A stretch of DNA of 64,000 nt from Thermoanaerobaculia bacterium (GTDB lineage: Bacteria > Acidobacteriota > Thermoanaerobaculia > Multivoradales > JAHEKO01): NCBI GenBank assembly GCA_041567315.1, contig JBFGCA010000002.1, forward strand, positions 8,055 through 72,054, read 5' to 3'. Position 1 is the stretch's first letter, and each line of letters opens with the position of its first letter. Below are positions 1-46,005 of this stretch, piece by piece. The position numbers and the translations under genes are program-made. A model generated the notes under the pieces. The model was not told the DNA's origin. It did no database searches and saw only the letters and a list, made by a program, of their open reading frames with translations.

Positions 1-443
1 GTGGGCTGGCTGCGGCGGCGGGCCAGGGCCACCTCTTCGGCCAGCTTCTCGAGCTCGACCTGCGCGAACTGGTTGCTGGGATCGAGCTGCACCGCCTGCT
101 GGTACTCCTCGAGCGCCCGCTCGAGGGCGCCGGCGGCGTGGAGCTCCTTGCCGCGCTCGAAATGGTCCTGCGAGGCCTTGATCTTGGCCCGCAGCAGGCC
201 GGTCCGATAGGAGACGTTGCCCGGGCTGCGATCCACCAGGTCGAGGTAGAGGAGCACCGCCTCGTCCCAGTCGCCGCGCTGCTCCGCGATCTGCGCGCGC
301 CGGGCGCTGCGGAAGCTCGAGCAGCCGGCCAGCAGCAGCGCCGCCACCAGCGCCAAGGACACCGCCGGCAGCAGTGCGGTCAGCCGGCCGAGTCCGCTGG
401 CGGCCGGCCTCCCGTCGCGTGCACCGCGCATCGTCGCCAGCAT
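1..443 (-). CDS. TPR-repeat lipoprotein, partial (C-terminus runs off the window start); possible PilF/PilW/Tgl-like pilotin or N-terminal part of a PilQ-type secretin
   Basis: Minus-strand ATG at 443 preceded by GGGAGGG RBS, immediately after the pilP stop (445-447). Translation MLATMRGARDG...LTALLPAVSLALVAALLLAGCSSF carries a lipobox (LAGC) and TPR-like helices. Position after pilMNOP is where pilQ or a pilotin is usually found. Confidence 0.55.
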   Translation of the reverse strand, partial: MLATMRGARDGRPAASGLGRLTALLPAVSLALVAALLLAGCSSFRSARRAQIAEQRGDWDEAVLLYLDLVDRSPGNVSYRTGLLRAKIKASQDHFERGKELHAAGALERALEEYQQAVQLDPSNQFAQVELEKLAEEVALARRRSQP

Positions 444-444
444 A

Positions 445-1032
445 CTACCCTCCCACCGCCAGCCGTTTTGCGGGGACGTCCGGAAAACCCACGAACCCGA
501 GGTCCGCGGACTCGTAGCCGATCTCGACCACCCGGAACTTCTCCTTGACCACGCCGCCGCGGAAGGCGTTGTAGATGTCGTTGCCGTCGGTGAAGACCGC
601 CAGCTGCCGGCCCCGGGGTCCGAAGCTGCCGAGGTAGACGACGTCGACCGGTGGCGGCTGGGGCCGCGCCGGCGCCGCCGAGCGGCTCTCCCGCAGCCGC
701 TCCGCCGCCTCGCCCGCCGCCCGGCGAGCGCGCTCGGCGGCCTCGGGATCGGGTGGAGGCGGGGTGGGGGCCGGCGGCGGCGACGCGGCGCCGAAGCGGA
801 ACGGATCGCGGCCCGGGCTGAAATGGGCGGCCTCGCGCTCGAGGCTCTCGAGGCCCAGCTCGACCACCTCCACCTGCAGACCGCCCGCGTCGCCGCCACC
901 CTCGCCGGCGCCGGACCCGCCACCCACCCGGCCACGCGAGCTCGACCCGCCGGCGAACTGCCGCCCCACCATGACCACCAGGCCGACCGCCAGCGCCGCC
1001 AGCAGGAGCTGCTTGCGCCGCTCGTCGGTCAC
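445..1032 (-). CDS. pilP: type IV pilus assembly protein PilP-like
   Basis: GTG start at 1032 overlaps the pilO stop (GTGA). N-terminal hydrophobic segment KQLLLAALAVGLVVMVG. Conserved RDPF motif (PGRDPFRF), Pro-rich linker and C-terminal beta-rich domain typical of PilP. Fourth gene of the pilMNOP arrangement. Confidence 0.65.
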   Translation of the reverse strand: MTDERRKQLLLAALAVGLVVMVGRQFAGGSSSRGRVGGGSGAGEGGGDAGGLQVEVVELGLESLEREAAHFSPGRDPFRFGAASPPPAPTPPPPDPEAAERARRAAGEAAERLRESRSAAPARPQPPPVDVVYLGSFGPRGRQLAVFTDGNDIYNAFRGGVVKEKFRVVEIGYESADLGFVGFPDVPAKRLAVGG

Positions 1033-1616
1033 GAGGTCACCCCCGGCCTGGCGGCCGCCGACTCGTCGACGAACAGCGTCGACAGCTTGAGCTGGATGCG
1101 GAGGCTGCCCTGCCCCGCGGCCTCGCTGAGGCTGACCTCGTCGAGGGTCAGAAACAGCTCCGACAGCTCCAGGAAGTTGATGAACGTCCGGAGCTCGACG
1201 TAGCTGCCGTCGACCGCGAAGACGATCGAGCGCTTGACGAGACCGTGATCCTCGATCTCCTCCCCGGGGTAGGTGACCACCGCCGGCTCCACTCCGGCAC
1301 GGCGGGCCAGCTCCTTGACCTCGGCGATCACCCTGGTGAGCCGCAGCCGCTCGGTGGTCAGCCAGGAGTCGTAGAACGTGGCCACCCGCTCGCGGGTCCG
1401 ACGCGCCCGTCCGACCACCTCCTCGAGCCCGGCCCGCTCCACCTCGAGCCGCGCCAGCTCCTCGCTGCGGCGCTCCACGCGCAGCTCGCGCAGCTGGGCC
1501 TGACCGGCAAAGACCAGCCGGTAGGAGGAGAAGACCACCAGGTTGGCCAGGAAGAAGAGCAGCGCCGGCAGCCACAGGATCAGCCGCTCGCGCCAGACGT
1601 CGCGGCGGGTCTTCAC
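1029..1616 (-). CDS. pilO: type IV pilus assembly protein PilO
   Basis: GTG start at 1616 overlaps the pilN stop (GTGA). VKTRRDVWRERLILWLPALLFFLANLVVF TM segment followed by coiled coil and a PilO-like C-terminal domain. The long N-terminal extension of the listed ORF is high-GC frame noise. Confidence 0.8.
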   Translation of the reverse strand: MKTRRDVWRERLILWLPALLFFLANLVVFSSYRLVFAGQAQLRELRVERRSEELARLEVERAGLEEVVGRARRTRERVATFYDSWLTTERLRLTRVIAEVKELARRAGVEPAVVTYPGEEIEDHGLVKRSIVFAVDGSYVELRTFINFLELSELFLTLDEVSLSEAAGQGSLRIQLKLSTLFVDESAAARPGVTS

Positions 1617-2431
1617 GGCTCGGTGACCTCCGGCCCGGCGTCCCCGCTCCCGGCGTCCGCGGACTCGGCATCCCCGGGCCCGGCATCCCCGGGCCCGGCG
1701 GCGACCCGGGGCGACGCGGTCTCCCCGCCCGCCACCGCCTCGACCGGCGGCAGCACCTCTTCCAGCTCGACCTCCTCCGCTGCTTCCAGCGGCGTGCCCC
1801 CCGCCTCTCCGCCTTCGGCTGCGGCGCTGGCCGCCGGCAGATAGACCGCGCCCAGCGAGAACTCCACGTTGCCGCCCTCGCGGCGCGCCTCGCTGACCAG
1901 GTTCGGCTCGCGGAAGGCGGGGTGGGCGAAGATCGCGTCGATGAAGGCGAGCAGCGCCTGGTCGCTCTTGGCGACGCCGGCCAGTTCGAGTTGCACCAGC
2001 TCCTCCCGCGGCGCCAGGGCGCTGCCTCGCCGGCTCGCCTGCTTGGGATCGCTGAACCGCGGGTTGAGGCGGCGCAGATGGACCTCGGCCGGAAGCACCT
2101 CGGCCAGGCGGTCGAAGAGCGAGCTCCAGGAGAACGCCCGCTGGGCGATCTTGGTGTTGAGGAAGGCGACGTGGACGTTCTGCTCGGCCAGGTCGAGCCC
2201 GTCGAGCTCCTGCCGCAGCCGCTCCAGCTCGGCGCTCTCCGCCTCGAGCCGCGTCTCGAGCTGGCCGAGCCGCTCGCTCTTGGCGCCCTGGCCCGAGAAG
2301 TACCCCCAGTAGAGCCAGACGTTGGCCGCCAGCAGCGCCACCCCCAGCAGCCACAGCAGGGTGGTCGCCCGGCGCACCGGCCGCGCGTTGACGAACGGAT
2401 CGGCGGCGAGGTCGAGCCGCGCGGGTCTCAC
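1613..2431 (-). CDS. pilN: type IV pilus assembly protein PilN
   Basis: GTG start at 2431 with GGAGGTGG RBS, overlapping the pilM stop (GTGA). DPFVNARPVRRATTLLWLLGVALLAANVWLYW is a typical PilN N-terminus with a single TM. Coiled-coil region and Pro/Ala/Gly-rich C-tail. Confidence 0.8.
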   Translation of the reverse strand: MRPARLDLAADPFVNARPVRRATTLLWLLGVALLAANVWLYWGYFSGQGAKSERLGQLETRLEAESAELERLRQELDGLDLAEQNVHVAFLNTKIAQRAFSWSSLFDRLAEVLPAEVHLRRLNPRFSDPKQASRRGSALAPREELVQLELAGVAKSDQALLAFIDAIFAHPAFREPNLVSEARREGGNVEFSLGAVYLPAASAAAEGGEAGGTPLEAAEEVELEEVLPPVEAVAGGETASPRVAAGPGDAGPGDAESADAGSGDAGPEVTEP

Positions 2432-3411
2432 GCCACCTCCTGCCGCGCCGCCCCGAACAGCGGCGCCACCTCGTGGAGCGGCACCGCGGCCGGCTCGCCG
2501 GTGAGCGGCAGATGCTCGCGGCCCACCGGGTAGACCGGCACCTCGAAGGCCTCGGCCAACCACTCCACCCAGGCCGCCTCCCACTCGGGCGGGCAGACCA
2601 CCAGGATGCGCGGCGGCGGCGGCTCGCCGAGCTGGTCGGCCAGATAGGCGCGCGTCAGCTTGAGGTCGCGCAGCACCAGCGGCCCGGTCGCCGCCTCGGC
2701 CTCGGCGCCCGGCAGCGCCTTGCTGCGGTGCAGCACCGGCTCGCCGCGATGGAGGAACAGCAGCCCGTAGCGCTCGGGCGAGGCCAGCACCAGGGCTGCC
2801 AGCTCGGCGGCCCGGCAGGCGTCCTGGAGTCCCGCCATCAGCGACAGGCTCTCGTTGGCGATCTGTCCCAGCCGGATGCGCCGCTCGCGAAAGGCGGCCT
2901 CGACCTGGGAAAGAAGCTGGTCGAGGGCGAAGCCCAGCAACATCCGGTGGGACTCCTGCTGGCGGGGCAGCGGCGCCACCTCGGCCGCCGTCAGCCGCAG
3001 CTCCTCGACCCTGAACGGCACCAGCTTGTGGAGCTTCCAGCGCAGCACCTCGTCGCGCGCGGCGGGGGCGCGCGGCAGCTCGGCGATCTCGGTGAAGGCC
3101 AGCCGCAGCCAGGAGTCGGGCAGCACCAGCGAGGCCGCCGTCACCGGCGCCGACACCCGCGCCATCAGCGCCTCGAGCGGCTCGCGCAGCGACCCCGGCT
3201 CGCGCAGCCCGCCGCCCAGCGGACCGCCCCCGAACAGCCCGCCGTCCAGCTCGACCACCTGGTACTCGCGGAACTCGAAGCCGCCGTTGGCCGCCGCGAA
3301 ACAGCCGTACCGCAGGCGCCCGCCGTCGAGACCGAAAACGTGCGGCGGCACCGGCACCGGGTCGAAGCCCAGCAGCCGCTTAATCCACAAAGGTGACCTT
3401 GTTGATCTCAC
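2428..3411 (-). CDS. pilM: type IV pilus assembly protein PilM (actin-like ATPase fold)
   Basis: LLGFDPVPVPPHVFGLDGGRLRYGCF...ILVVCPPEWEAAWVEWL is PilM/FtsA-like. The annotated ATG at 3411 overlaps the pilB 3' end by about 30 nt; an alternative TTG about 20 nt downstream is possible. Confidence 0.82.
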   Translation of the reverse strand: MRSTRSPLWIKRLLGFDPVPVPPHVFGLDGGRLRYGCFAAANGGFEFREYQVVELDGGLFGGGPLGGGLREPGSLREPLEALMARVSAPVTAASLVLPDSWLRLAFTEIAELPRAPAARDEVLRWKLHKLVPFRVEELRLTAAEVAPLPRQQESHRMLLGFALDQLLSQVEAAFRERRIRLGQIANESLSLMAGLQDACRAAELAALVLASPERYGLLFLHRGEPVLHRSKALPGAEAEAATGPLVLRDLKLTRAYLADQLGEPPPPRILVVCPPEWEAAWVEWLAEAFEVPVYPVGREHLPLTGEPAAVPLHEVAPLFGAARQEVA

Positions 3412-5023
3412 GAAGAGTGGTGACTCCCTGGAGCACCTTCTCCAGCGCCGACTCGCGCAGGAAAATCATGCCCTCGTCGGCTGCCGCCCGCTTGATCTCG
3501 GAGGCCGGGCGGCGCTCGAGGATCAGCTCGCGGATGCGGTCGGACAGATCGAGCAGCTCGGAGATGGCCATGCGGCCCAGGAACCCGGTGCCGTTGCACT
3601 CGATGCAGCCCTCGCCCTCGTAGAACTCGCGATCGCCGTAGAGCGAGGCGTCGAGCCCGCTTTCGGCCAGCAGCGCGCTGCCGGCCCGCACCGGATGCTT
3701 GCAGTTCTCGCAGATCTTGCGCACCAGTCGCTGGGCCAGGACGCAGTTGAGGGCGGAGACGAAGTTGTAGAGGTCCACCTTCATGTTGAGGAAGCGGCCG
3801 AGCACGTCCACCACGTTGTTGGCGTGCACGGTGGTGAACACCAGGTGGCCGGTGAGCGCCGACTGGACGGCGATCTGGGCGGTCTCCTCGTCGCGGATCT
3901 CGCCGACCATGATCTTGTCCGGGTCGTGGCGCAGGATGGAGCGCAGCCCGCGGGCGAAGGTCAGCCCCTTCTTCTCGTTGACCGGGATCTGCGTGATGCC
4001 CCGCAGCTGGTACTCGACCGGGTCCTCGATGGTGATGATCTTGTCCTCCGAGGACTGGATCTCCGACAGGCAGGCGTAGAGCGTGGTGGTCTTGCCCGAG
4101 CCGGTCGGACCGGTGACCAGCACCATGCCGTAGGGCTCGCGGTTGAACTTGCGGATCTTGCGCACCGTCTCGGGGTCGAAGCCCAGGATGTCGAGGCGCA
4201 GGTTCTTGAACTCCTTGTTCATCGACTCCTTGTCGAGGATGCGGATGACCGCGTCCTCGCCGTGCACCGACGGCATGATGGAGACGCGGAAGTCGATGTT
4301 GCGCCCCTCGAACCGCAACTTGAAGCGGCCGTCCTGGGGGATCCGCTTCTCGGCGATGTCCAGCTCTGCCATCACCTTGATGCGGCTGATGATGGTCTGG
4401 TGGTGGCGCTTGTCGATCGGCTCCATGGCCTGGTAGAGGACGCCGTCGATCCGGTACTTGATGATCACTTCGCCTTCGCGGGTCTCGATGTGGATGTCGC
4501 TGGCGCGGCGCTGGATGGCGTTGAAGATCGTCGAGTCCACCAGCTTGATGATCGGGCTGAGGTCGGCGGTGATGCGGTCGATCGACAGCACCTCCTCGCC
4601 CTCGGCGTCCTCCTGGATGAGCTGGATGCGGAAGTCCTCGGTGGCCTCGTCGAGCACCCGCTGGGCGCTCTCCGAGCGCTGCAGGATCTCCTCGATCGCC
4701 GAGCGCGCCCCGACCCGCACCTCTACCGGCTGACCGAGCAGCAGCTCCAGCTCGTCGAGCTTGGTGACGTCCTTGGGGTCGGCCATGACGATGGCCAGCC
4801 GGCCCGGCAGCTGGTGCTCGGGGATGAAGCTGTAGCGCAGCATCAGGTCGAAGGGGATCGAGCGGAACAGGTCGTTGTCGATCCGGAAGCGGGACATGTC
4901 GACGAGGTCGAGACCGTAGCGCCGGGCCATCTCCTCGACCTGGCGGCGCTCCTGCTCGCGGCGGACCGCCAGCTCCTCGGCGGTCTCCATCAACGGCTGG
5001 GTTGTCGCGCGCTGCGGTTCCAT
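3380..5023 (-). CDS. pilB: type IV pilus assembly ATPase PilB (GspE family)
   Basis: 547 aa with N-terminal GspII_E domain. Walker A GPTGSGKTT, Asp box, His box and tetracysteine motif CENCKHP...CIECNGTGF. Strong full-length similarity to PilB/GspE. Confidence 0.95.
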   Translation of the reverse strand: MEPQRATTQPLMETAEELAVRREQERRQVEEMARRYGLDLVDMSRFRIDNDLFRSIPFDLMLRYSFIPEHQLPGRLAIVMADPKDVTKLDELELLLGQPVEVRVGARSAIEEILQRSESAQRVLDEATEDFRIQLIQEDAEGEEVLSIDRITADLSPIIKLVDSTIFNAIQRRASDIHIETREGEVIIKYRIDGVLYQAMEPIDKRHHQTIISRIKVMAELDIAEKRIPQDGRFKLRFEGRNIDFRVSIMPSVHGEDAVIRILDKESMNKEFKNLRLDILGFDPETVRKIRKFNREPYGMVLVTGPTGSGKTTTLYACLSEIQSSEDKIITIEDPVEYQLRGITQIPVNEKKGLTFARGLRSILRHDPDKIMVGEIRDEETAQIAVQSALTGHLVFTTVHANNVVDVLGRFLNMKVDLYNFVSALNCVLAQRLVRKICENCKHPVRAGSALLAESGLDASLYGDREFYEGEGCIECNGTGFLGRMAISELLDLSDRIRELILERRPASEIKRAAADEGMIFLRESALEKVLQGVTTLREINKVTFVD

Positions 5024-5090
5024 TCGAGCTCTCCTTGCGGGTGGACCTCTACGCCCTACTAACGATGCGGCGCCGCCAGCCGTCTAGCCG

Positions 5091-6302
5091 TCATCCCTGC
5101 ACCTGGCCCAGCAGGCTGAAGATCGGCAGGTAGACCGACACCAGCAGGGTGGCCACGATAATCCCCATCAGCATCATCATCACCGGCTCGAGCAGGCTCA
5201 GGATGCGCTGCAGGCGGGTCTCCACCTCCTCGTCGAGGAAGTCCGACAGCTCGGAGAGCATCGAGTCGAGCCCGCCGGTGGTCTCGCCGGTCTTGACCAT
5301 GTCGACCACGATCGCCTCCACCACCCCGGTCTCCTCCAGGTTGGCGGCCAGCGACTTGCCCTCCCGCACGCCCTGGACGATGGGCGCCAGACGCTTGCGC
5401 ATGAACGGGTTGCCCACCGCGCGGATCGAGATCTCGAGCGAAGAGACCACCGGGATGCCGCCGGCCAGCAGGGTGGACAGCGACCGGCAGAACTCGGACA
5501 GCGCCATGCGGTGGAAGATCGCGCCCAGCAAGGGCAGCCGCAGCTTGAGGCGCGAGACGGCGAGCTGGCCGGCCTCGGACTGCGCGAACTGGTAGATCAG
5601 GAAGCCGCCGGCCGCCGCCCCGCCGACCAGCAGCAGGAAGTTGTCGCGGACGAAGATCGCCGCCCCCATGGTCAGCCGGGTGATCAACGGCAGCTCGACC
5701 TTGAGGGCCGAGAAGAACTCGGTGAACTTGGGCAGCACGTAGACCATCATCACCGCGATCAGGGCGATCGACAGCCCGACCAGCGCCGCCGGGTAGATCA
5801 GCGCCGAGACCACCCGCTTGCGGGCGTCGAGCAGCAGCCGCTGGTAGCGGATGAAGCGCCGGATGACCCCCTCCAGCTCGCCGCTGCGCTCGCCGGCCCT
5901 CAGGCTCGGCGGATAGAGCGGCGGCAGCAGCTCGACGTGCTCTTCGAAGGCGGTCGACAGGTGCTCGCCGCTCTTCACCTTGTCGCGGACCTGCGACAGG
6001 ACCTGCCGGAAGGTGGGGTCCTGCTGGCGCTCGAGCACCAGCTCGAGGGCCGGCAGCAGCGGCAGACCCGACCTCAGCAGCGCCGCCAGCTCCTGGTTGA
6101 ACACCAGCAGCGGCCGGATCGGGATCTTGCGCCGCCGGCCGAACCGCGGCAGCCGCAGACCGGCCAGCCCCCGCGCCTTGGCCTCGAACAGGTGCAGGCC
6201 CCGCCGCTCCAGCTCGGCCCGCAGCGCCGACTCGCTGGCCGCCTCGTGGACCTCCTCGAGGACCCGGCCCTCGGGCGTGCCGACCCGGCAGAGGTACTGC
6301 AC
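5091..6302 (-). CDS. pilC: type IV pilus inner-membrane platform protein PilC (GspF family)
   Basis: 403 aa with two GspF repeats (LLRSGLPLLPALELV... / LLAGGIPVVSSLEI...) and three TM segments. Lies immediately upstream of pilB in the same orientation. Confidence 0.93.
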   Translation of the reverse strand: MQYLCRVGTPEGRVLEEVHEAASESALRAELERRGLHLFEAKARGLAGLRLPRFGRRRKIPIRPLLVFNQELAALLRSGLPLLPALELVLERQQDPTFRQVLSQVRDKVKSGEHLSTAFEEHVELLPPLYPPSLRAGERSGELEGVIRRFIRYQRLLLDARKRVVSALIYPAALVGLSIALIAVMMVYVLPKFTEFFSALKVELPLITRLTMGAAIFVRDNFLLLVGGAAAGGFLIYQFAQSEAGQLAVSRLKLRLPLLGAIFHRMALSEFCRSLSTLLAGGIPVVSSLEISIRAVGNPFMRKRLAPIVQGVREGKSLAANLEETGVVEAIVVDMVKTGETTGGLDSMLSELSDFLDEEVETRLQRILSLLEPVMMMLMGIIVATLLVSVYLPIFSLLGQVQG

Positions 6303-6327
6303 CCCGCCTACGCTCCCACCGCGCCGC

Positions 6328-7005
6328 TCACGGCTCGGCCTCCGACCCGAGACTGCAGGTCAGCACCAGCATCAGCGCCTCGCGGCTCGATTCGGCCCGC
6401 GCCAGTCCCAGGATCATCGGTTTGTCGAGCCACAGGTTCAGGTTGGTGTGGATCAGTTGCTCCGGCTCCGGGTTGCCGCGGTCGCGCGCCACCCGGAATC
6501 CGTGCAGCTTGAGCCGCCGATCCTCCCGCAGCGTTCCCATTCGAAAGCCTACCCGATACTCCTCGCCCAGCTGATGGGTGACCTCCTCGCCTTCGCGGAC
6601 CTCGAGCCGGGCGCGCGCCAGCAGCCGGTAGCTCTCGTACCGCAGCAGCTCGCGCAGCCGCGCCACCAGCGCCGGCGGCAGCTCGGAGGCGTCCCCCGGG
6701 GCCGCCTCGACGCCGGCCTTGACGATCCGGATCTCGAGCTCGACCGGGCTGGCCGGGTGATCGAACTCGGCGAGCAGGGCGACCACCCGCTCGATCACCT
6801 CCGCGCGGTCGCGGACGACGAGCGTGTTGGCTCCGGGCTGCAGCTCGACGGTGCCCTCGGCCGACAGCAGCGGGTGGACCAGCTGCAGCGCCTCACTGGC
6901 CGGCTGGTGGAGCAGCGTGTAGGCGTGGACCCGCCGGTCGTCGCCGCCGCGGCCCGTGCCCTGCGCCGCCGCCCGCGGCACCGGCAGCAGCAGCGCCACC
7001 ACCAT
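6328..7005 (-). CDS. exported protein with secretin N-domain-like region followed by a short secretin-like segment (minimal secretin or PilQ-related fragment?)
   Basis: Start taken at ATG 7005 (MVVALLLPVPRAAAQG, signal-like); the exact start is uncertain. GANTLVVRDRAEVIERVVALLAEFDHP resembles Secretin_N (N1) domains. VELEIRIVKAG resembles the beginning of a secretin core. Only about 225 aa. Confidence 0.45.
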   Translation of the reverse strand: MVVALLLPVPRAAAQGTGRGGDDRRVHAYTLLHQPASEALQLVHPLLSAEGTVELQPGANTLVVRDRAEVIERVVALLAEFDHPASPVELEIRIVKAGVEAAPGDASELPPALVARLRELLRYESYRLLARARLEVREGEEVTHQLGEEYRVGFRMGTLREDRRLKLHGFRVARDRGNPEPEQLIHTNLNLWLDKPMILGLARAESSREALMLVLTCSLGSEAEP

Positions 7006-7106
7006 CGCGGCCAGCAGCGCCGGCGGCGGCGCGGTCCGCGGCCAGCGCCACGCGGGGCCGGTCGGTGGGGTGCAGCGGCCGGCGAAGCACGGGGAGGGTG
7101 CCGGGC

Positions 7107-7607
7107 TCAGATCTCGAGGCTCTCGTCGACGATCATCACCACCGACAGGTCCTCCTCGGTGAGCTGGTAGATCCGCGCCTGCGGCCGGTCGAGGTTCTCG
7201 ATCAGCGGCGCCGGCAGCAGCTCGGCGGCCCGCAGCACAGAGGACGGTGGGACCTGCGGCGGGTGGGCGGGCCGCTCGGCGCCGCCGCCGGCGAGCAGCG
7301 CCAGGCCGGCCGCCAGCAGACCCGCCGCCGCCACCCGCGGCAGCCGCGCGCGGCGCCCTGCGGACCGCCGCTCGAGGGCGCGGACGCGGCGCAGCGCGGC
7401 GACCGTGCGGCCCATCTGCGCCACCTCGGCCGGAGTGGTCGCCGGCTCCGGCAGCAGCAGGAAGTGGTTGGAGGGATCGGCGGCGAGCACCGCGCGGCGG
7501 CACGCCGCGCAGCCGCGCAGGTGGTCGATGGCCCGCCGGCGGGCGGCGAGGTCGGGCCGCTCGGCGGCCAGCAGCTCGCTCAGCCGGCGGTGGTCGGGAC
7601 AGCTCAT
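7107..7607 (-). CDS. anti-sigma factor (zf-HC2-type, single TM)
   Basis: N-terminal DHLRGCAACRR zinc-finger-like anti-sigma motif and TM segment VAAAGLLAAGLALLAGG. Start overlaps the ECF sigma stop (ATGA). Confidence 0.7.
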   Translation of the reverse strand: MSCPDHRRLSELLAAERPDLAARRRAIDHLRGCAACRRAVLAADPSNHFLLLPEPATTPAEVAQMGRTVAALRRVRALERRSAGRRARLPRVAAAGLLAAGLALLAGGGAERPAHPPQVPPSSVLRAAELLPAPLIENLDRPQARIYQLTEEDLSVVMIVDESLEI

Positions 7608-8227
7608 GGCCTCTCGGTCGCGTACTCGGGGAACCGCTTGAGCAGCTCCTCGCGCAGCTTCTTGCGGGCGCTGAACAGGTGGTTGCGCACCGTCGAGGCC
7701 CGGCAGCCGAGGATCGCCGCCACCTCGCGCGACGGCAGGCCCTCGAGGGCGCGCAGCACGAAGACCGCCCGCTGCCGGTCGCTGAGCCCGGCGGCCAGCT
7801 CTTCGAAGATGCGAGCCACCTCTTTTTCCTGCAGCGCCGCCAGATCGCGGCGGTGGCGCCAGTCGGCCACCCGCCGCAGGTGCCAGCGGAACGGCTCGCG
7901 GCCGCGCGCCTGGCTACGCCGCGAGCGCAGCTGATCGATCGCCAGGTTGGCGGTGATCCGGTAGAGCCAGGTGTTGGGGCTCCAGCGCGGCTCGAACCGC
8001 CGGCGGTGCTCCCAGACCCTGAGAAAGGCGGCCTGCACCACGTCCCGCGCCTCCTCGCGATCGCCCAGCAGCCGGGTGGCGAGCACCAGCAGCGGACCGG
8101 TCTTGCGCTCGATGAGACCGGCGAAGGCGTCTTCGTCGCCGCCGGCCACCGCCGCCAGGAGCTGGCGGTCGGTGGCTTGCCGCCAGCTGCGGCGGGCCTG
8201 GCGCGAGGAATAGGCGAGAACCGGCAA
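7604..8227 (-). CDS. RNA polymerase ECF-type sigma-70 factor
   Basis: 207 aa with sigma-70 region 2 (FAGLIERKTGPLLVLATRLLGDREEARDVVQAAFLRVWE) and region 4 (LSDRQRAVFVLRALEGLPSREVAAILGCRASTVRNHL). Confidence 0.9.
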   Translation of the reverse strand: MPVLAYSSRQARRSWRQATDRQLLAAVAGGDEDAFAGLIERKTGPLLVLATRLLGDREEARDVVQAAFLRVWEHRRRFEPRWSPNTWLYRITANLAIDQLRSRRSQARGREPFRWHLRRVADWRHRRDLAALQEKEVARIFEELAAGLSDRQRAVFVLRALEGLPSREVAAILGCRASTVRNHLFSARKKLREELLKRFPEYATERP

Positions 8228-8333
8228 GAGACCCCCTATTCGTTCCTGTACGATGAACCGGGCGGCACCGTCTAGTGGCGCTCCGCGCTCGCAGCACCCT
8301 CGGTCCCAGTCTAACGCCGCGCCGGCCGCCGCG

Positions 8334-17615: not shown

Positions 17616-18488
17616 ATGCCCGCCGGCCTGGTGCGCTCGCTGCGGCCCCATCAGTGGGCCAAGAACCTGTTCGTGCTGGCACCGCTGGTCTTCGGCCGCC
17701 AGCTCGACGACGCCGGTGCCCTGACCCGGGCGGCGCTGGCCTTCGCCGCCTTCTGCGCCGCCTCCAGCGCCGTCTATCTGTTCAACGACATCCGCGATCG
17801 CGAGGAGGACCGGCGCCATCCCCACACGCGCCAGCGGCCGCTGGCCGCCGGCACGCTGAGCGTCGGCGTCGCGGCCGCCGCCATCGCCCTGCTGGTAGCC
17901 CTGGCCGCGGCCGGCGGCGCCGCGCTGGGACCGCTCTTCGCGCTGCTGCTGGGCAGCTATCTGCTGCTCAACCTGCTCTACACGCTGGGCCTCAAGCAGG
18001 TGGTGATCCTCGACGTCATGGTGATCAGCATGGGCTTCGTGCTGCGGGTAGTGGCGGGCGCCGTCGCCGCCGAGGTGGCGGTGTCGGCCTGGCTGGTGCT
18101 GTGCACTACGTTTCTGGCGCTGTTTCTGGCCTTCTCCAAGCGCCGCCACGAGCTGCAGGTCATGGCCGACGAAGCGGCCGAAGGCCGGCGGGTCTTGAGC
18201 CACTACAGTCAGTCGTTCCTGGACCAGATGATCAACGTGGTCACCGCCTCCACGGTGGTCAGCTACGCGGTCTACGCCATCTCCCCGGAAACGGTCGAGA
18301 AGTTCCACACCCGCAACCTGATCTACACCATGCCGCTGGTGCTGTTCGGCATCTTCCGCTATCTCTACCTGATCTACCAGCGACCCGCCGAGCGCAACCC
18401 CACCGAGGCGATCCTGCGCGACCTGCCCTTCCTCGCCAACCTCGGGCTGTGGGTGCTGGCGGTGCTGTGGATCGTCTACCGCGGATAG
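17616..18488 (+). CDS. UbiA-family prenyltransferase, decaprenyl-phosphate 5-phosphoribosyltransferase (Rv3806c/DPPR synthase)-like
   Basis: HQWAKNLFVLAPLVFG and YLFNDIRDREEDRRHPHTRQRPLAAG match the hallmark NDxxDxxxD region and N-terminus of Rv3806c-type DPPR synthases. 8-9 TM helices. ATG at 17616. Confidence 0.78.
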   Translation: MPAGLVRSLRPHQWAKNLFVLAPLVFGRQLDDAGALTRAALAFAAFCAASSAVYLFNDIRDREEDRRHPHTRQRPLAAGTLSVGVAAAAIALLVALAAAGGAALGPLFALLLGSYLLLNLLYTLGLKQVVILDVMVISMGFVLRVVAGAVAAEVAVSAWLVLCTTFLALFLAFSKRRHELQVMADEAAEGRRVLSHYSQSFLDQMINVVTASTVVSYAVYAISPETVEKFHTRNLIYTMPLVLFGIFRYLYLIYQRPAERNPTEAILRDLPFLANLGLWVLAVLWIVYRG

Positions 18489-18496
18489 CGGCGCCC

Positions 18497-19573
18497 GTGG
18501 CGGAAGAGTCGGCGGCCGGCGAGCGGGGACCCTGGCGGCGGCTGCCGGCGTGGCTCACCCGCCCGCCGGCGCCGGGCCGGGTGCGGCCGGGTCTCTACGC
18601 CTTCGAGATCGTCGCCTGGCTGGCGCTGGCGGCGGCGGTCGTCTTCCTGCGCTGGCAGGGGCTCAACGTCGACTGGGTCACCGTCGACTACACCATCCCG
18701 CCGCTGATCGCGCCGACGCTCAAGGCGCTGGCCAGCGGCGTGGTGCTGTACGCCGTCTACCACCTGCTGCGGCGGCGGCCGCCCGGCGACTACCTGCGGC
18801 AGGTCTTCTCGCTCCCGTGGCTGCTGCTCGGCGCGCGGCTGTGGCTGACCTGTCTGGTCTTCACCTACGCCTACTTCTGGCTCAAGGTCTCGGTGCCGCT
18901 GGTCAACTGGCGGCTCTGGGACCGCGAGCTGTGGCGGCTCGACGTGCTGCTCCACGCCGGCTTCTCGCCGACCGTCTTCCTGGTCGAGCTGCTGGCCGGC
19001 ACCGGGCTGCTGCCGCTGCTCGAGCTCTGGTACAGCTGGTGGCTGCCGTCGACGATGTTCGGGCTGGCCTTCTTCTGCGCCTACCCCGACGCCCGCACCC
19101 GGCGCCGCTTCATGTTGAGCACCGTGCTGCTGTGGACGCTGGGCGCCTGGCTCTACGTGGCGCTGCCGGCGCTGGGGCCGGCCTACGTCTACCCCGAGGA
19201 GTTCGCCGAGGTGCGTGAGGAGATGCCGCGCGCCGCCGGCGCCCAGTCGATGCTGATGGACAACTACCAGAAGGTGCTGGCCGGCCGCACCGGCCCGCTC
19301 AAGCGTTTCAACCCCACTCGCGGGATCGCCGCCCTGCCGAGCCTCCACGTCGGCGGGCACTGGCTGCTGCTGCTGTGGGTGCGGCGGCGGGCGCGGCCGC
19401 TCTACCTGCCGGCCGCGCTCGGCACCGCCCTGACCTTCGTCGGCTCGATCGTCACCGGCTGGCACTACGCGGTCGACGGCTACGCCGGCATCATCGTTGC
19501 ACTGGCCGCCTACTGGACGGCGCTTGCCGTCGACCGCCGGCTGGGCGGCGAGGCCGACGCAGTCGAAGACTAA
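18497..19573 (+). CDS. PAP2-superfamily membrane phosphatase (Rv3807c-like polyprenyl-phospho-sugar phosphatase candidate)
   Basis: GTG start at 18497, 9 nt after the UbiA stop. PAP2 motifs PSLHVGGHW and GWHYAVDGYAG. Multiple TM helices. Confidence 0.62.
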   Translation: MAEESAAGERGPWRRLPAWLTRPPAPGRVRPGLYAFEIVAWLALAAAVVFLRWQGLNVDWVTVDYTIPPLIAPTLKALASGVVLYAVYHLLRRRPPGDYLRQVFSLPWLLLGARLWLTCLVFTYAYFWLKVSVPLVNWRLWDRELWRLDVLLHAGFSPTVFLVELLAGTGLLPLLELWYSWWLPSTMFGLAFFCAYPDARTRRRFMLSTVLLWTLGAWLYVALPALGPAYVYPEEFAEVREEMPRAAGAQSMLMDNYQKVLAGRTGPLKRFNPTRGIAALPSLHVGGHWLLLLWVRRRARPLYLPAALGTALTFVGSIVTGWHYAVDGYAGIIVALAAYWTALAVDRRLGGEADAVED

Positions 19574-21153: not shown

Positions 21154-22335
21154 ATGCCGACCACGACCCGCGTCGCGCTCGCCCTGTTCGCCACCCTGAC
21201 CTGGACGTCGTCGCTGGCCGCCCGGACCGCGGAGGTCGCGGTCGAGCAGCCGGCCACGACTAGTGCCGGTGACACCAGCGCTGCCGAGACCGCGGCGGCC
21301 CCGCAGGAGCCGCCGCCCGGCGCCCGCTTCGAGGAGCGGGTGGAGGTCCGAGAGGTCCTGCTCGACGTCCTGGTCACCGACCGCCAGGGGCAGATCGTCG
21401 CCGGCCTCGACAAAGACGCCTTCGTGGTCGAGGAGGACGGCGAGGAGCGGGAGCTCACCGGGGCCCGGTTCTACAGCACCCGCTACGGCGAGCTGGGGAC
21501 CCCCGGCGCCGAGGAGGTGCCCGCCAGCCGCTACTTCATCTTCGTGTTCCACGACCAGCGGCTGGGGGTGACCTTCGCCGGCCGCATGGTCCGCCAGCAG
21601 CTCGACGCCGCCCGCCAGAGCCGCGCCTGGCTCGAAGACGGCATGCGGCCCTCGGACTGGGTGGCGGTGGCCAGCTACGACGTCAAGCTCAAGGTCCATC
21701 AGGACTTCACCCAGGACCGCGAGGCACTGGCGCGGGCCATGGACGACGCCGCGCGGAGCGTCCGGCCCGAGCCGCGGCGGCGCCGCGACCGCGAGGCGAT
21801 CCCGGTGGAGCTGCCCTCGCTGCTCCGCCATCTGCCCGACGATTTCGCGCTCCGCAAGCGGACGCCGCGGATGTACGAGGCCCTCCAGCTGCTGGCCGAG
21901 GCCAGCGGTCACATCGTGGGGCGCAAGAACCTGCTGCTGTTCTCGATCGGCTTCGGCGAGATCGACCGCGTCTCCGGCACCGTGCTCCCCGACCGCCGCT
22001 TCTACCCGCCGCTCGAGCGCGCCCTCAACGACAACAACGTGGCGGTCTACCCCATCGATCTCACCCCGACCGGCATCCGGCACCTGCAGAGCGACTTCCT
22101 CAACAAGCTGGCCTACGACACCGGCGGCGTCTACCACCGCAGCTTCGTGAGCTTCATCACCCCCCTGCGCGAGATCTCCGACGACACCAGCGGCTACTAC
22201 CTCCTCAGCTACCGCACCGAGCACCCGGCCGACGAAAGCGGCTTCCAGGAAGTCAAGGTCAAAGTGCAGCAGAAGGGGCTGCGGGTGCGGGCGCGCCGCG
22301 GCTACCTGTACGGGCCGGCGCCGGTGCGGCGCTGA
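21154..22335 (+). CDS. VWA domain protein (VWFA-related Acidobacterial domain family)
   Basis: Signal peptide MPTTTRVALALFATLTWTSSLAA. VWA-like fold (VLLDVLVTDRQGQ..., FIFVFHD, DWVAVASYDVKL) resembling the TIGR03436 architecture. Confidence 0.68.
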   Translation: MPTTTRVALALFATLTWTSSLAARTAEVAVEQPATTSAGDTSAAETAAAPQEPPPGARFEERVEVREVLLDVLVTDRQGQIVAGLDKDAFVVEEDGEERELTGARFYSTRYGELGTPGAEEVPASRYFIFVFHDQRLGVTFAGRMVRQQLDAARQSRAWLEDGMRPSDWVAVASYDVKLKVHQDFTQDREALARAMDDAARSVRPEPRRRRDREAIPVELPSLLRHLPDDFALRKRTPRMYEALQLLAEASGHIVGRKNLLLFSIGFGEIDRVSGTVLPDRRFYPPLERALNDNNVAVYPIDLTPTGIRHLQSDFLNKLAYDTGGVYHRSFVSFITPLREISDDTSGYYLLSYRTEHPADESGFQEVKVKVQQKGLRVRARRGYLYGPAPVRR

Positions 22336-22687: not shown

Positions 22688-24457
22688 TCATCGTCCGGTC
22701 AGCAGGCCGGTCACGAGGGCGGCTGAGAGGGCGGCGAGCATCCAAACGAGGCGGGCGCGTGGCGAGAGCGGGCGGGGGGCGATGGGGCCGAGGCGGCGGG
22801 CAAGGCCGGCGGCGAGGAGGGCGAGGAGGACGAGGGCGGCGGCGCCGAGGGCGGCGAGCCACCAGGCGTCGGGGGTGGCGAGGGCGCGCTGGAGGAGGAA
22901 GGAGTTCCTGGGCTCGAAGGAGAGGTAGGCGCGGGGGGGCCAGTGCGCCCAGTCCCAGGCCGCGGCCTGGAGGTAGCGGGCGCGGCCGTAGGTCTCGAGC
23001 AGCCGCAGGTGGAACTCGGTGAAGGGGACGAGGGTGCCGCTAACGGCGAGCAGGGCCGAGGCGGCGACGAGCGCGCGGCCGCCCCAGCGCCAGAGGGGCC
23101 GGGTGGGCGGCGTCTCGAAGAACGGGGCGCAGAGCAGGGCCAGGAGCGGCAGCGCCGGGACCAGGAAGCGCGGGCCCCAGCACCAGCCGCCGTGCCAGTC
23201 GCCCCAGCGGGCGTAGAGCAGGAGCAGGGCGGCCAGCGACCCCCAGGCGAGGAGGGTCGACGGCGGGTGCCGACGCCAGCCGGCGCGGGTGCAGGCGGCG
23301 GCCAGGAGCACGGTCGGGAAGTAGAGCAGCAGACCGCGGCCGGGGCTCGCCAGCAGACCGGCCAGGCCCTCGGTGAGCGGGCTGAACCAGCGGTCCATCT
23401 CGGCCTCGTAGCCGGTCCGCCAGGGACGGCCGAAGCGCGCCCAGTTGGACCAGCCGACCACCGCCAGCATGGCGAGCACCCCGGCGGCGAAGGCCAGGAT
23501 CGGCGGCAGCCCACGGCGCCCCGGCCACCGGCGGGCGACCGACCACAGGAGCACCGCGCCGCCGACCGGCAACAGGACGCCGTGCGCGATCTTGGCCAGG
23601 ACCGCGAGCCCCAGGGCGAGACCGGCCAGGAAGGCCGCCCACCGTGCAGGGCGGGAGACCGCACCCGGCGGGACATCCCCGGGCTGCGGCGCTACGGACT
23701 GCGGCGCGCCGGGCTGGGACGCGACCGGCTGGGTCCGGGCGGAGACGGCCTCGGCAGCGGCCTTCTCGCCGGCCGGCGTCCCAGCTGGCGTGTCGGTAGA
23801 CGGCCTGTCGGTCGACGGGGGCCGCCCGGTGGGGTCCGAATGCGGCGGAGTCGCCACCGCCCGCGCGGCGGCGAGCGCGAAGCCGACCAGCGCCAGGGCG
23901 GCCAGGGGCTCGGCGAAAAAGGTGCGGCCGTAGACCAGGAGCGGCGAGCCAAGCGTCGCCAGCAGCGCCACCGCGGCGGCGGTGCGGCGGCGGTACCCGA
24001 GCTCGAGCGCCAGCAGGAAGAGCAGCGCGCCGGTGGCCGCCACCACTACCGAGTTGGTCAGCGAGAGCGCGAAGAAGCCCCAGGCGTCGGCAGGCCGGTG
24101 CGGGTCGTACCACAGGAACTCCATGCCTTCGAAGACGGCCGTCGAGCGGGCCGGCGCCAGCGCCGCCAGCGCGCGGCCCAGCCACCAGAAGGGCACGCCG
24201 GCCAGCGACTGGCCGACGCCGTATTTGGCGTAGAGCCGGCCGTCGGGGCCGGGGAAGACGAAGCCCGGCGGCAGCCGCGGCTCGTCGACCCAGAGGCCGC
24301 CGTGCTCGGCCAGGGTCTGGGTCACCCGGCCCATCACCACCCCGTCGGGGCTGTGGACGAAGCCGCTGCCGGCGAGCGCCAGCGCCAGGGCGATGAGGGC
24401 GAAGAGCCAGACGGCGGGGCGGCCGCGCGCGGCGAGCGGTGGTCCGGAGGCGCTCAC
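22688..24457 (-). CDS. ArnT/PMT-like GT-C glycosyltransferase (GT39/GT83-like, polyprenyl-phosphate-sugar dependent)
   Basis: 589 aa with at least 11 TM helices. N-terminal loop VVMGRVTQTLAEHGGLWVDEP...YAKYGVGQSLAGVPFWWLG and ...GRTFFAEPLAALAL resemble ArnT/PMT_2 families. Start ATG 24457 overlaps the stop of the upstream GT-C (ATGA). Confidence 0.65.
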   Translation of the reverse strand: MSASGPPLAARGRPAVWLFALIALALALAGSGFVHSPDGVVMGRVTQTLAEHGGLWVDEPRLPPGFVFPGPDGRLYAKYGVGQSLAGVPFWWLGRALAALAPARSTAVFEGMEFLWYDPHRPADAWGFFALSLTNSVVVAATGALLFLLALELGYRRRTAAAVALLATLGSPLLVYGRTFFAEPLAALALVGFALAAARAVATPPHSDPTGRPPSTDRPSTDTPAGTPAGEKAAAEAVSARTQPVASQPGAPQSVAPQPGDVPPGAVSRPARWAAFLAGLALGLAVLAKIAHGVLLPVGGAVLLWSVARRWPGRRGLPPILAFAAGVLAMLAVVGWSNWARFGRPWRTGYEAEMDRWFSPLTEGLAGLLASPGRGLLLYFPTVLLAAACTRAGWRRHPPSTLLAWGSLAALLLLYARWGDWHGGWCWGPRFLVPALPLLALLCAPFFETPPTRPLWRWGGRALVAASALLAVSGTLVPFTEFHLRLLETYGRARYLQAAAWDWAHWPPRAYLSFEPRNSFLLQRALATPDAWWLAALGAAALVLLALLAAGLARRLGPIAPRPLSPRARLVWMLAALSAALVTGLLTGR

Positions 24458-26199: not shown

Positions 26200-26300
26200 T
26201 CTCCAGCCGCTCCGGCGGCGGCAGTGGCCATGGGCAGCACCGCCGCCAGGTTTCCACAGGTCCGGGAGCGCCACAAGGCCGCTGCTAACATCCCGCGCCC

Positions 26301-32405: not shown

Positions 32406-33179
32406 ATGCAGGTTGATCCACTGCTCGCCCTCTACGCCCTGCTGGTGGGCCTGGTGGTGGGCAGCTACCTCAACGTCCTGATCCACCGGCTGCCGCGCGG
32501 GGTCTCGACCGTCCGGCCGCGCTCGCGCTGCCCGTACTGCGACGGCCCGATCGGCGCCCGCGACAACGTGCCGCTGGCCAGCTTCCTGCTGCTCAGGGGC
32601 CGCTGCCGGCGCTGCGGCGCCCCCATAGCCTGGCGCTACCCGCTGGTCGAGGCGCTCACCGGCGCGCTGTTCGCGGCCTGCGTGGTGCGCTTCGGCGCCA
32701 GCCTGGAGGCGCTGACGGCGGCGGTCTTCGCGGCGCTCATGGTGCTGCTGGCGATGATCGACCTCGAGCACTTCCTGCTGCCCGACCGGGTGACCCTGCC
32801 GGGGATCTTCCTCGGGCTCGCTCTGCAGCCGTGGCGGCCGGGGGTCGGCTGGCTGGAAGCGGTGGTCGGGGCGCTGGCCGGCGCCGGTCTGCTGGTGCTG
32901 CTGATGAACCTCTGGTACTGGCTGCGCGGGGAGGAGGGCATGGGGATGGGTGACGTCAACATGATGGCGCTGATCGGCGCCTTCCTGGGCTGGAAGGCGG
33001 CCCTGGTGGCGCTGCTGGGGGCGGCCCTCAGCGGCGCGCTGCTGGGGATCGTCCTGCTGCTCGCCGGCCGCGTCGGCTGGCGCTCGCGGCTGCCGTTCGG
33101 GGTCTTCCTGGCCGGCGGCGGCCTGCTGGCGCTGTTCGCCGGCGAGCGGCTGCTGGCGCTCTACGGACGCCTGCCCTGA
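32406..33179 (+). CDS. pilD: prepilin peptidase / N-methyltransferase PilD (A24 family)
   Basis: Cys-box CPYCDGPIG...CRRCG, catalytic-Asp regions (LAMIDLEHFLLPD; GMGMGDVNMMALIGAFLGW), 8 TM helices. Confidence 0.9.
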   Translation: MQVDPLLALYALLVGLVVGSYLNVLIHRLPRGVSTVRPRSRCPYCDGPIGARDNVPLASFLLLRGRCRRCGAPIAWRYPLVEALTGALFAACVVRFGASLEALTAAVFAALMVLLAMIDLEHFLLPDRVTLPGIFLGLALQPWRPGVGWLEAVVGALAGAGLLVLLMNLWYWLRGEEGMGMGDVNMMALIGAFLGWKAALVALLGAALSGALLGIVLLLAGRVGWRSRLPFGVFLAGGGLLALFAGERLLALYGRLP

Positions 33180-33210
33180 GAGGCCGGTCCCACCCTTCGA
33201 GGCGCCGGGC

Positions 33211-34980: not shown

Positions 34981-35087
34981 AAAAGAAACGCAGTTCGGAC
35001 CCATGCCCGCCGCACCGGCCGCCGCGCCGGGGCCGCAACCTCAATAGCGACAGCGACTTGGCCGGAGAAAAAGCGGCGGATCCAACC

Positions 35088-35102
35088 TGGCACCCGCTTT
35101 GC
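35088..35102 (+). promoter_or_regulatory. sigma-54 (-24/-12) promoter candidate upstream of the minor-pilin operon
   Basis: TGGCACccgctTTGCT is a near-consensus match (TGGCAC-N5-TTGCW), about 60 nt upstream of the first minor pilin gene. Confidence 0.6.
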
Positions 35103-35165
35103 TCGGTCGTGATCGGTGACCGGAAGCGCGACAACGGGTCCGGAGCGAGCGTGATGGGAGGCGGC

Positions 35166-35825: not shown

Positions 35826-35848
35826 CGCCGGGAAGGAGCGAAACAGCG

Positions 35849-36430: not shown

Positions 36431-36443
36431 GGAAGCGCCGCCG

Positions 36444-38320: not shown

Positions 38321-38367
38321 GTCCCGCCGGCGCCGTCCCTCCCCGCGCGGCCTCCAAGGAGTCGAAG

Positions 38368-42552: not shown

Positions 42553-42578
42553 GTGGAGGCCACCGGAAAGGAGCGCCG

Positions 42579-43289: not shown

Positions 43290-43313
43290 ACGCCCGCCGC
43301 GGAGATGCCCGGC

Positions 43314-44600: not shown

Positions 44601-44636
44601 ACCTTGCCGCGGTCGGGCGCGACGTATCTAGTGGCC

Positions 44637-45956
<1,320 letters not shown>

Positions 45957-46005
45957 CCTACCGCCCGACCTCCGCTCGTATAATCGCCCTTCGGAGCGGC
46001 GCGGC

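Follow-up and report, generated by a model that had tools for sequence, protein, structure and literature searches.

A sigma factor, an anti-sigma factor and a short secretin-fold protein head a pilus- or secretion-type operon in Thermoanaerobaculia: a candidate sensory module

Organization of the locus

The 64-kb window of Thermoanaerobaculia DNA analysed here (the whole stretch of 64,000 nucleotides) contains a run of minus-strand genes that begins with an extracytoplasmic function (ECF) sigma factor, an anti-sigma factor, and a protein of 225 residues, here called the mini-secretin. The run continues into the genes of a pilus- or secretion-type machine and ends at the edge of the window with a full-length secretin. 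The region has a GC content of about 74% and many overlapping open reading frames (ORFs). The three-gene head, which is the main subject of this analysis, comprises the following features.

8249..8274, minus strand: candidate ECF-type promoter TAGACG-N16-CGTA, 21 nt upstream of the TTG start of the sigma gene
7604..8227, minus strand: ECF (group IV) sigma factor, 207 residues, with Sigma70_r2, Sigma70_r4_2, and Sigma70_ECF above their cutoffs
7107..7607, minus strand: single-pass, ZAS-like anti-sigma factor, 166 residues, with motif and architecture kept in about 40 orthologues
7110..7208, minus strand: conserved C-terminal periplasmic tail of the anti-sigma factor, residues 134-166, PLIENLDRPQARIYQLTEEDLSVVMIVDESLEI, the best-conserved part of the protein
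6328..7005, minus strand: mini-secretin, 225 residues, with a short signal peptide, an N3-type Secretin_N domain, and a compact predicted secretin-fold domain (ATG at 7005, stop at 6328)
6751..6936, minus strand: Secretin_N (N3-type) domain of the mini-secretin, residues 24-85, matched by PF03958
6346..6750, minus strand: compact C-terminal domain with predicted secretin fold, residues 86-220, containing the conserved helix LxxRLRELLRY

A sequence-only reading of this DNA had described three co-oriented genes with an ECF sigma factor and an ATGA overlap, and each of these elements is borne out. The minus-strand ORFs lie at 7604-8227, 7107-7607, and 6328-7005 in the order given, and the stop codon of the sigma gene shares ATGA with the start of the anti-sigma gene at 7604-7607. 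NCBI calls the gene for the 225-residue protein identically (assembly GCA_041608635.1). The sigma factor scores 61 bits for Sigma70_r2 (residues 44-104), 55 bits for Sigma70_r4_2 (residues 140-191), 50 bits for Sigma70_ECF, and 102 bits for TIGR02937 (cutoff 42.9). Its 207 residues hold sigma2 and sigma4 regions only, the domain set of an ECF factor, and the overlapping anti-sigma gene together with an AAC-like -35 and CGT -10 motif in the candidate promoter is likewise of ECF type. No equivalog model matched the protein at its own cutoff. The start codon is TTG, preceded by AGGGGG, and orthologues share 61-69% identity.

The anti-sigma factor had been proposed to be of the zf-HC2 type, and this assignment is plausible and not secure. 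A zinc-type motif (C3 and H29-x3-C33-x2-C36, that is, C-x25-H-x3-C-x2-C, with the form CPD..H-x3-C-x2-C) is conserved in most orthologues, and a single hydrophobic segment is present. The zf-HC2 model (PF13490) itself remains below threshold at 10 bits against 22.2, and the orthologue on a related 3.99-Mb contig (L004) reaches 14.5 bits. The protein is laid out as an N-terminal motif, a basic stretch, one hydrophobic segment at about residues 92-109, and a periplasmic part of 57 residues.

The mini-secretin family and its domain anatomy

Homologues of the 225-residue protein were sought in 5.8 billion proteins grouped into 90% clusters, and 319 were recovered at E<=1e-3. The best 120 of these 319 are 204-296 residues long, share 47-68% identity with the query, and cover 82-99% of it. 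Where names are given, they read 'secretin N-terminal domain-containing protein [Thermoanaerobaculia bacterium]', and the PGAP name is likewise secretin N-terminal domain-containing protein. A profile search of 1.84 billion representatives placed no fewer than 205 clusters at 50% identity (E<=1e-30) in the family, which has a length range of 205-300 residues, a constant length and gene position, and near-invariant residues in both halves of the alignment. With 319 homologues and 205 clusters, the arrangement of sigma factor, anti-sigma factor, and 225-residue protein is far beyond chance. A GTDB scan with one genome per species located 49 loci, all in Thermoanaerobaculia or Acidobacteriota metagenome-assembled genomes (MAGs). 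Judged by these sequence searches, the family has so far been found only in Thermoanaerobaculia, mostly from MAGs.

Two longer proteins, P0245 (664 residues) and P0256 (707 residues), show 9 and 7 tandem matches, respectively, to the Secretin_N part of the family profile and are multi-N-domain proteins.

The Secretin_N-like segment noted in the sequence-only reading is confirmed by PF03958, which matches residues 28-85 with 34.4 bits against a gathering score of 28.2 and is found in 120 of 120 family members. It is the sole Pfam match of the protein. The checks suggested alongside, against the secretin barrel family (PF00263) and STN (PF07660), gave no match in the 225-residue protein, and neither these families nor SAF/CpaB were detected in the 120 members, even at E<=10. 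An identity as a CpaB/RcpC-type SAF protein or an STN domain was accordingly rejected, there being no such match in the Pfam searches. The NCBIfam models for PilQ and GspD (TIGR02515/02517) match only the N-domain, with 33-35 bits against cutoffs of 284-351. When the family profile is compared with PDB sequences, its alignment covers the last N-domain of PilQ from Neisseria and Myxococcus (N3, immediately before the barrel), continues into the first barrel strand, and ends there. The segment VELEIRIVKAG, which had been recognized as the possible start of a secretin core, is aligned in this search with PilQ 'vmIEarIvEA', the first barrel strand.

Structural statements about the mini-secretin all rest on predicted models. 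AlphaFold2, supplied with the alignment of 120 sequences, modelled the full-length protein with a mean predicted local distance difference test (pLDDT) of 88.2 and a predicted template modelling score (pTM) of 0.77. About 10 mature residues precede the N3 domain. The predicted topology is a beta-alpha-beta-beta-alpha N-domain, a long strand (87-98), a helix (111-120), and seven further strands. In a Foldseek search of the PDB, the best 34 matches to this model are all secretins (E 1.5e-7 to 1e-5), and structures of N-domains alone reach E-values of only about 1e-2. The C-terminal domain modelled alone matches secretin barrels only, which indicates that its predicted fold is that of a secretin barrel. 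Its modelled strands are about 6-12 residues long.

At the sequence level, support for homology of the C-terminal domain is weak but collinear. Alignment with hhalign to the operon's full-length secretins pairs YRLLARARLEVREGEEVTHQLGEEYRV with AELLASPQVRISDGETASLHIGDSVPIP in a weak local match (P=0.0034) around the motif 'LLA.P.l.i.eGe.a.l.iG'. The last two strands, LIHTNLNLWLDKPMILGLARAE ... REALMLVLTC, fall opposite ESTIRLKNGETNFLAGLIRTDE and RTDLVLTLTP in the same order, a match that is non-significant when taken alone (P=0.31). Within this collinear alignment, the mini-secretin has a gap of 27 residues where the full-length secretin carries the loop GvPGisDvPvLGRLF; the operon's full-length secretin has the general motif GxPxLxxIPxLGxLF, and the mini-secretin does not. 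The strands of the mini-secretin alternate hydrophobic with charged residues and lack a lipid-facing belt, as expected of a soluble sandwich and not of a lipid-facing barrel.

According to these models, the mini-secretin is an N3 domain joined to a shortened beta domain, about 135 residues long, with a secretin fold. An N0/STN domain, further N-domains, the GxPxLxxIPxLGxLF loop, and the S-domain are all absent from it. The idea of a minimal or accessory secretin holds at the level of fold, since the N3 domain is present and the C-terminal domain matches secretin barrels, and falls short at the level of family, as PF00263 goes undetected. We call the protein a secretin-fold paralogue and not a secretin, because it has the N3 domain and the fold but is smaller than a secretin and shows neither a match to the family model nor the loop nor an N0 domain.

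Homologues carry typical signal peptides ending in an AxA-Q site, which marks the family as exported. At 6958-7106 of the window (minus strand), the in-frame codons upstream of the annotated start (…AWRWPRTAPPPALLAA; AWRWPR...) resemble the n- and h-regions of these homologues. No ATG, GTG, or TTG precedes the n-region-like codons in the window, and the atypical start of the mini-secretin could reflect a lost or non-canonical start codon.

The operon encodes a full-length secretin

Downstream of the mini-secretin, the operon continues with the following genes.

5091..6302, minus strand: GspF/PilC-type platform protein (T2SSF 180.7 bits; GspF 294 and PilC 244 bits, both below cutoff)
3380..5023, minus strand: GspE/PilB-type assembly ATPase with MshEN (T2SSE 431.7, MshEN 61, GspE 534, and PilB 525 bits)
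2428..3411, minus strand: protein in the PilM position, no family match, placed by position and conserved synteny
1613..2392, minus strand: PilN (PF05137, a weak Pfam match at 29.8 bits against 22.8)
1029..1616, minus strand: protein in the PilO/GspM position, placed by synteny; the L004 orthologue matches GspM weakly
445..1032, minus strand: protein in the PilP position, no family match, placed by synteny only
1..443, minus strand: 5' end (147 codons) of a full-length lipoprotein-TPR secretin, cut by the window edge and recognized by its match to the L004 secretin

The sequence-only reading had noted that no pilQ follows pilP in the window and had named a full-length pilQ just past the window edge as a finding that would refute its interpretation. 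This is in substance what was found. The ORF that starts at 443 on the minus strand opens with LLLAGC, a lipoprotein signal, and continues as TPR-like sequence; it shares 61% identity over 107 residues with the N-terminus of an 823-residue L004 protein. That protein (16393-18864) lies directly after pilP and contains Secretin_N at residues 243-300, PF00263 at residues 365-533 (142.5 bits), and a C-terminal Cohesin domain at residues 699-807 (30.7 bits). Where related loci extend 8.5 kb or more downstream, a full-length secretin follows pilP in 30 of 30 cases, ahead of two pilin genes and one for a protein of about 266 residues. What had been read as a TPR gene at 1-443 is the beginning of such a secretin, and the claim of an absent pilQ is wrong.

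Since an intact secretin is present, the argument that a protein too short for a secretin might nevertheless serve as one in a system without pilQ fails. The machine has a normal secretin, and the 225-residue protein is an additional paralogue. As a practical lesson, a gene that seems to be missing at the edge of a window, such as pilQ here, can be an artefact of that edge.

The secretins of relatives range from 629 to about 900 residues. The fusion of a TPR lipoprotein to a secretin recalls the separate pilotins PilF, PilW, and Tgl; no match to this pilotin family was found for the TPR-lipoprotein secretin.

Conservation of the arrangement among relatives

All operon proteins were compared by tblastn with 50 related loci. 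The gene order is invariant: kdtA (divergent), sigma, anti-sigma, mini-secretin, pilC, pilB, pilM, pilN, pilO, pilP, secretin, pilin, pilin, and the 266-residue protein. The sigma gene is present in 42 of the 42 loci with upstream sequence, pilC in 46 of 46, and the secretin in 30 of 30. The anti-sigma gene was missed by tblastn in six loci, all of which hold an ORF of the same architecture. The same neighbours surround a divergent member on a contig of 65% GC (L054) and an apparently fused or mis-called gene (L055). A reciprocal test started from sigma orthologues on long contigs, chosen by sigma similarity alone, and the trio followed by T2SSF and T2SSE genes was found in three of three cases. 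Among the 50 loci and five additional look-ups, no mini-secretin without the sigma pair was found, nor the reverse. The question raised by the sequence-only reading, whether the sigma and anti-sigma orthologues are always linked to pilus-type genes, is answered in the affirmative from both sides (42 of 42 loci, and three of three from the sigma side). The association of the trio with the machine is solid on this comparative basis; synteny cannot assign the roles within the trio.

Candidate promoters and transcriptional organization

ECF promoters typically combine an 'AC' in the -35 element, a 'CGT' in the -10 element, and a spacing of 16-17 nt. The conserved candidate motif TAGACG-N16-CGTA shows the 'AC', the 'CGT', and a 16-nt spacing. 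It occurs once in the 64-kb window, where 0.12 matches are expected by chance, and of the 42 related loci with a sigma gene, 39 carry the same 26-nt motif just upstream of it. Two of the three exceptions (L036 and L049) carry TAAACG variants at this position. Inside the related gene clusters, only two further matches occur, both on the opposite strand, and no second ECF promoter was found within the cluster, either in the window or in related loci.

From sigma through secretin, neighbouring genes either overlap or leave gaps of no more than 101 nt; the mini-secretin gene lies 25 nt from pilC and 101 nt from the anti-sigma gene. No terminator-like sites or sigma70 promoters were found between the genes of the window. 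The simplest reading of this layout would be an autoregulated ECF operon with read-through into the machine genes.

Another element lies on the kdtA side. In 29 of 42 loci, a perfect, -10-like AGTATAAT precedes the ECF promoter by 30-176 nt, and its equivalent in the window is only TAGACT (8308-8313, minus strand). Conservation of AGTATAAT is remarkable in genomes of 65-75% GC. The element may represent a second, housekeeping promoter for the sigma operon.

The periplasmic tail of the anti-sigma factor

The tail comprises about 33 residues with the consensus P.IE.LNRP.ARVYQL..EDLSVVMIVDESLDV and usually forms the C-terminus in the approximately 40 orthologues. In many loci it is the sole part of the anti-sigma factor that tblastn detects. 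Between the membrane segment and the tail runs a low-complexity linker rich in Ala, Pro, and Gly, the length of which differs between species, with extremes of about 40 and about 170 residues. The linker varies as if its reach alone matters and not its sequence.

Co-variation was assessed by partial Mantel tests that controlled for PilC distances (38 species, 5000 permutations). Distances of the tail are correlated with those of the mini-secretin C-terminal domain (r=0.37, p=0.0002). Shared ancestry inflates tests of this kind, so the result is suggestive and not decisive. Correlations of the tail with the mini-secretin N-domain (r=-0.10), with the sigma factor (r=-0.21), and with its own cytoplasmic domain (r=-0.18) are not significant. 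The anti-sigma domain against the sigma factor, used as a positive control, gave r=0.57 (p=0.0002). The comparison across species suggests that the tail co-varies with the C-terminal domain of the mini-secretin. The notion that the tail is a mimic of a secretin strand or a remnant of an STN domain was considered and found unsupported, hhalign returning nothing below P=0.09.

Proposed role and alternative explanations

The preferred reading, plausible on these sequence comparisons, is that of a sensor coupling the ECF sigma factor to pilus assembly. It is drawn from the invariant linkage, the conserved and co-varying anti-sigma tail, and the single ECF-type promoter taken together. In its specific form, the mini-secretin would be the periplasmic sensing partner of the anti-sigma factor and would report the state of the machine to the machine's own gene switch, a proposal we advance tentatively and regard as possible, if not quite probable.

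Under this proposal, the sigma factor would drive transcription of its own operon, which would extend by read-through to the machine genes. The anti-sigma factor would hold the sigma factor at the inner membrane, while its variable linker would reach into the periplasm and end in the conserved tail, predicted to form two strands. The mini-secretin might bind this tail via its secretin-fold domain, by beta-edge pairing through free sheet edges; in a real secretin, those edges join one protomer to the next. Capture of the mini-secretin by the full-length secretin or by the machine under assembly, or its release from them, could expose or hide the tail. Such a change might alter the stability of the anti-sigma factor by protection and in this way set the activity of the sigma factor.

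A narrower version would make the module a checkpoint of secretin assembly. Here, the mini-secretin would act as a secretin-derived decoy protomer that holds the tail by beta-edge pairing and yields it only when captured by the assembling secretin or machine, after which the anti-sigma factor would be proteolysed. We consider this particular scheme rather unlikely. If true, the machine would license or boost its own synthesis, and the module would represent a new input mechanism for ECF signalling as well as a secretin fold put to a new use other than that of a channel.

Several observations weigh against a sensory role. The three genes are never apart in the sample, so comparative genomics cannot separate a regulatory from a structural role. 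The co-variation falls to r=0.24 (p=0.02) when the most divergent clade is removed, with the control at 0.54, and partial Mantel tests are inflated by shared phylogeny in any case. The tail shows no significant similarity to secretin strands in hhalign comparisons, nor is it always the exact C-terminus, as the divergent L054 member carries five extra residues. The signal peptide of the mini-secretin in the window (MVVALLLPVPRAAA, cut before QG) is unusually short and lacks a basic n-region. Finally, in 17 of 47 loci the start codon of the mini-secretin is preceded, at a distance of 13-15 nt, by a -10-like box, TCGCG[GAC]TA[AG][AG]NT. In the subclade that carries it (TCGCGGTAnAnT; for example, L021, L022, L023, and L035), CCGAG or CCTGAG follows and then the mini-secretin start; the box is absent from positions 7006-7106 of the window and from its closest relatives. 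In that one subclade, the box could act as an internal promoter from which the mini-secretin and pil genes are transcribed with almost no leader, and the pil genes may also be transcribed independently of the ECF promoter. Both this box and the AGTATAAT element complicate the simple picture of an autoregulated operon.

The main rival to the sensor is a purely structural accessory subunit, which we hold to be doubtful, although a serious contender. The mini-secretin would form an extra periplasmic ring under the full-length secretin or intercalate in it, and the sigma pair would be a mere neighbour that senses something else, for example, envelope stress. The N3 domain and the secretin fold are the parts through which secretins make their ring contacts, and the protein is always co-encoded with the machine and a full secretin. 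Its gene is also closer to pilC (25 nt) than to the anti-sigma gene (101 nt), and the possible separate promoter in one subclade fits as well. A structural role leaves unexplained, however, why a conserved anti-sigma tail co-varies with the C-terminal domain and not with the sigma factor or the N-domain, and why the mini-secretin occurs in no sampled genome that lacks the sigma pair.

Dedicated helpers, such as the pilotins PilF/PilW/Tgl and GspS, are a common requirement of secretins. The mini-secretin might, in this vein, be an assembly factor or decoy that caps unassembled secretin protomers in a chaperone-like, pilotin-like, or anti-aggregation role with no signalling, since a monomeric secretin-fold domain is predicted to have free sheet edges able to pair with protomers. 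The objection from tail co-variation applies here as it does to the structural subunit, and the full-length secretin, itself a lipoprotein with an N-terminal TPR, may pilot itself. We judge this explanation improbable.

A small homo-oligomeric outer-membrane pore, that is, a minimal secretin for a second substrate, is a good deal less credible still. The secretin fold is present, and the smallest solved cores of N3 and barrel (pIV with 230 and RcpA with 244 modelled residues) are not far above the approximately 200 mature residues of the mini-secretin. Canonical secretin barrels, however, have longer strands than the 6-12 residues modelled here. Moreover, PF00263 matches 0 of 120 members, the GxPxL..LGxLF loop is missing, the strands alternate hydrophobic and charged residues with no lipid-facing belt, and a complete secretin is already encoded in the operon.

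The PilQ remnant contemplated in the sequence-only reading, or more broadly a decaying fragment or spurious ORF, might be invoked for a short protein with an atypical start and signal peptide in a genome of about 74% GC with overlapping ORFs, but it is already refuted and has practically no likelihood left: the protein is full-length, conserved end to end in more than 200 divergent clusters (205 at 50% identity) with invariant residues in both domains, confidently modelled by AlphaFold2, constant in position and length (205-300 residues), and always found beside an intact secretin.

Type of machine and other features of the window

The sequence-only reading had described the downstream genes as a type IV pilus (T4P) operon. 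Genes of the pilC-pilB-pilMNOP type do follow; the T4P label is plausible and not secure against a type II secretion system (T2SS). For the ATPase, the platform protein, the secretin, and the pilins (GspE, GspF, GspD, and GspG models), T2SS scores equal or exceed the Pil scores, all of them below the equivalog cutoffs. The secretin of a relative, for example, scores 170 bits for GspD and 124 bits for PilQ, both below cutoff. The machine is not firmly assignable to the type IVa pilus (T4aP) or the T2SS. A second pilus-related cluster lies elsewhere in the window, at 32406-46088.

32406-33179: prepilin peptidase PilD
33211-34980: PAS histidine kinase
35810-38320: minor pilins (N_methyl, PilW, PilX_N)
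38368-42552: PilY1-domain protein, 1394 residues
43314-44600, minus strand: FecR-domain protein
44637-46088, minus strand: sigma54-dependent response regulator

The separate pilD, minor-pilin, and PilY1 genes of this cluster (32.4-42.6 kb) favour a T4aP.

Four sizeable ORFs of 393-902 residues have a coding-like GC content at third codon positions, namely 14909-17617 (minus), 21154-22335 (plus), 22688-24457 (minus), and 24454-26274 (minus). Pfam gave no match to these four at E<=1e-5. A search of positions 1-9000 with Rfam returned chance-level matches only.

Comparison with known systems

Secretins are known as large multimeric outer-membrane channels. The canonical members (PilQ, GspD/XcpQ, InvG, phage pIV, RcpA, and BfpB) have at least 400 residues, whereas the mini-secretin has 205-300. 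Compared with them, it is devoid of N0/STN, further N or AMIN domains, and an S-domain, and none of 120 members matches PF00263; it also lacks the GxPxLxxIPxLGxLF loop and about 40% of the barrel length. Further differences are an additional conserved helix, LxxRLRELLRY, the presence of a full secretin alongside it, and its link to a sigma/anti-sigma pair.

A functional parallel may lie in cell-surface signalling. In those systems, a secretin-type alpha/beta domain of the transducer binds an STN-like C-terminal subdomain of the anti-sigma factor, which protects it from proteolysis in the absence of a signal (PMC11637429). The trio shares with FecI/FecR/FecA and FoxI/FoxR/FoxA an ECF sigma factor paired with a single-pass anti-sigma factor and co-location with the regulated transport machine. 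By analogy, the periplasmic end of the anti-sigma factor would be bound by the secretin-type domain of an envelope protein, as in the FecA and FoxA systems. Searches of the anti-sigma factor and the mini-secretin for FecR, STN, and TonB_dep_Rec gave no matches. In contrast to the Fec and Fox proteins, the mini-secretin combines an N3-type domain with a secretin barrel fold and is neither an N0/STN signalling domain nor a TonB-dependent transducer, and the co-variation observed here points to the barrel-like domain, not to the N-domain. The module may work like cell-surface signalling without being a member of that group.

The order rpoE-rseA-rseB likewise places a sigma factor, a membrane anti-sigma factor, and an exported periplasmic protein in succession. 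The likeness extends to the ECF promoter at the sigma gene (a candidate here) and to the third protein, which is proposed to act as a co-anti-sigma factor that guards the periplasmic part. The MucB_RseB and RseA families had no match in the trio. Here, the anti-sigma factor is ZAS-like, and the operon continues into a pilus or secretion machine and not into rseC.

HrpL is not known to have a membrane anti-sigma factor. Sigma factors of the ECF32/HrpL type have a neighbourhood with a two-component system and type III secretion system (T3SS) genes (PMC7826278). The likeness is that of an ECF sigma factor with a conserved neighbourhood encoding a secretin-containing envelope machine (PMC7826278), but the machine here is T4P- or T2SS-like and not a T3SS. 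The main text of the ECF classification 2.0 paper names the T3SS-linked ECF32 but describes no group with a pilus, T2SS, or secretin context (PMC7826278). Full-text searches of the literature likewise returned no description of an ECF/anti-sigma/short-secretin module or of a mini-secretin.

The phage-shock (Psp) response to mislocalised secretins links the state of secretins to transcription through sigma54, PspF, and PspA, and it is generic. The module described here would, by comparison, devote an ECF pathway of its own to the task, with a sensor derived from a secretin. Sensing partners are the main basis for classifying ECF sigma factors, and a secretin-derived partner at the head of a secretin-machine operon would, if true, constitute a new ECF sensing logic. 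A conserved paralogue of about 200 residues that, as modelled, keeps only the N3 domain and a shortened barrel fold shows that the secretin fold is used outside the channel itself. If the proposed role is correct, the locus offers a testable case of a pilus or secretion machine that feeds its assembly state back to transcription.

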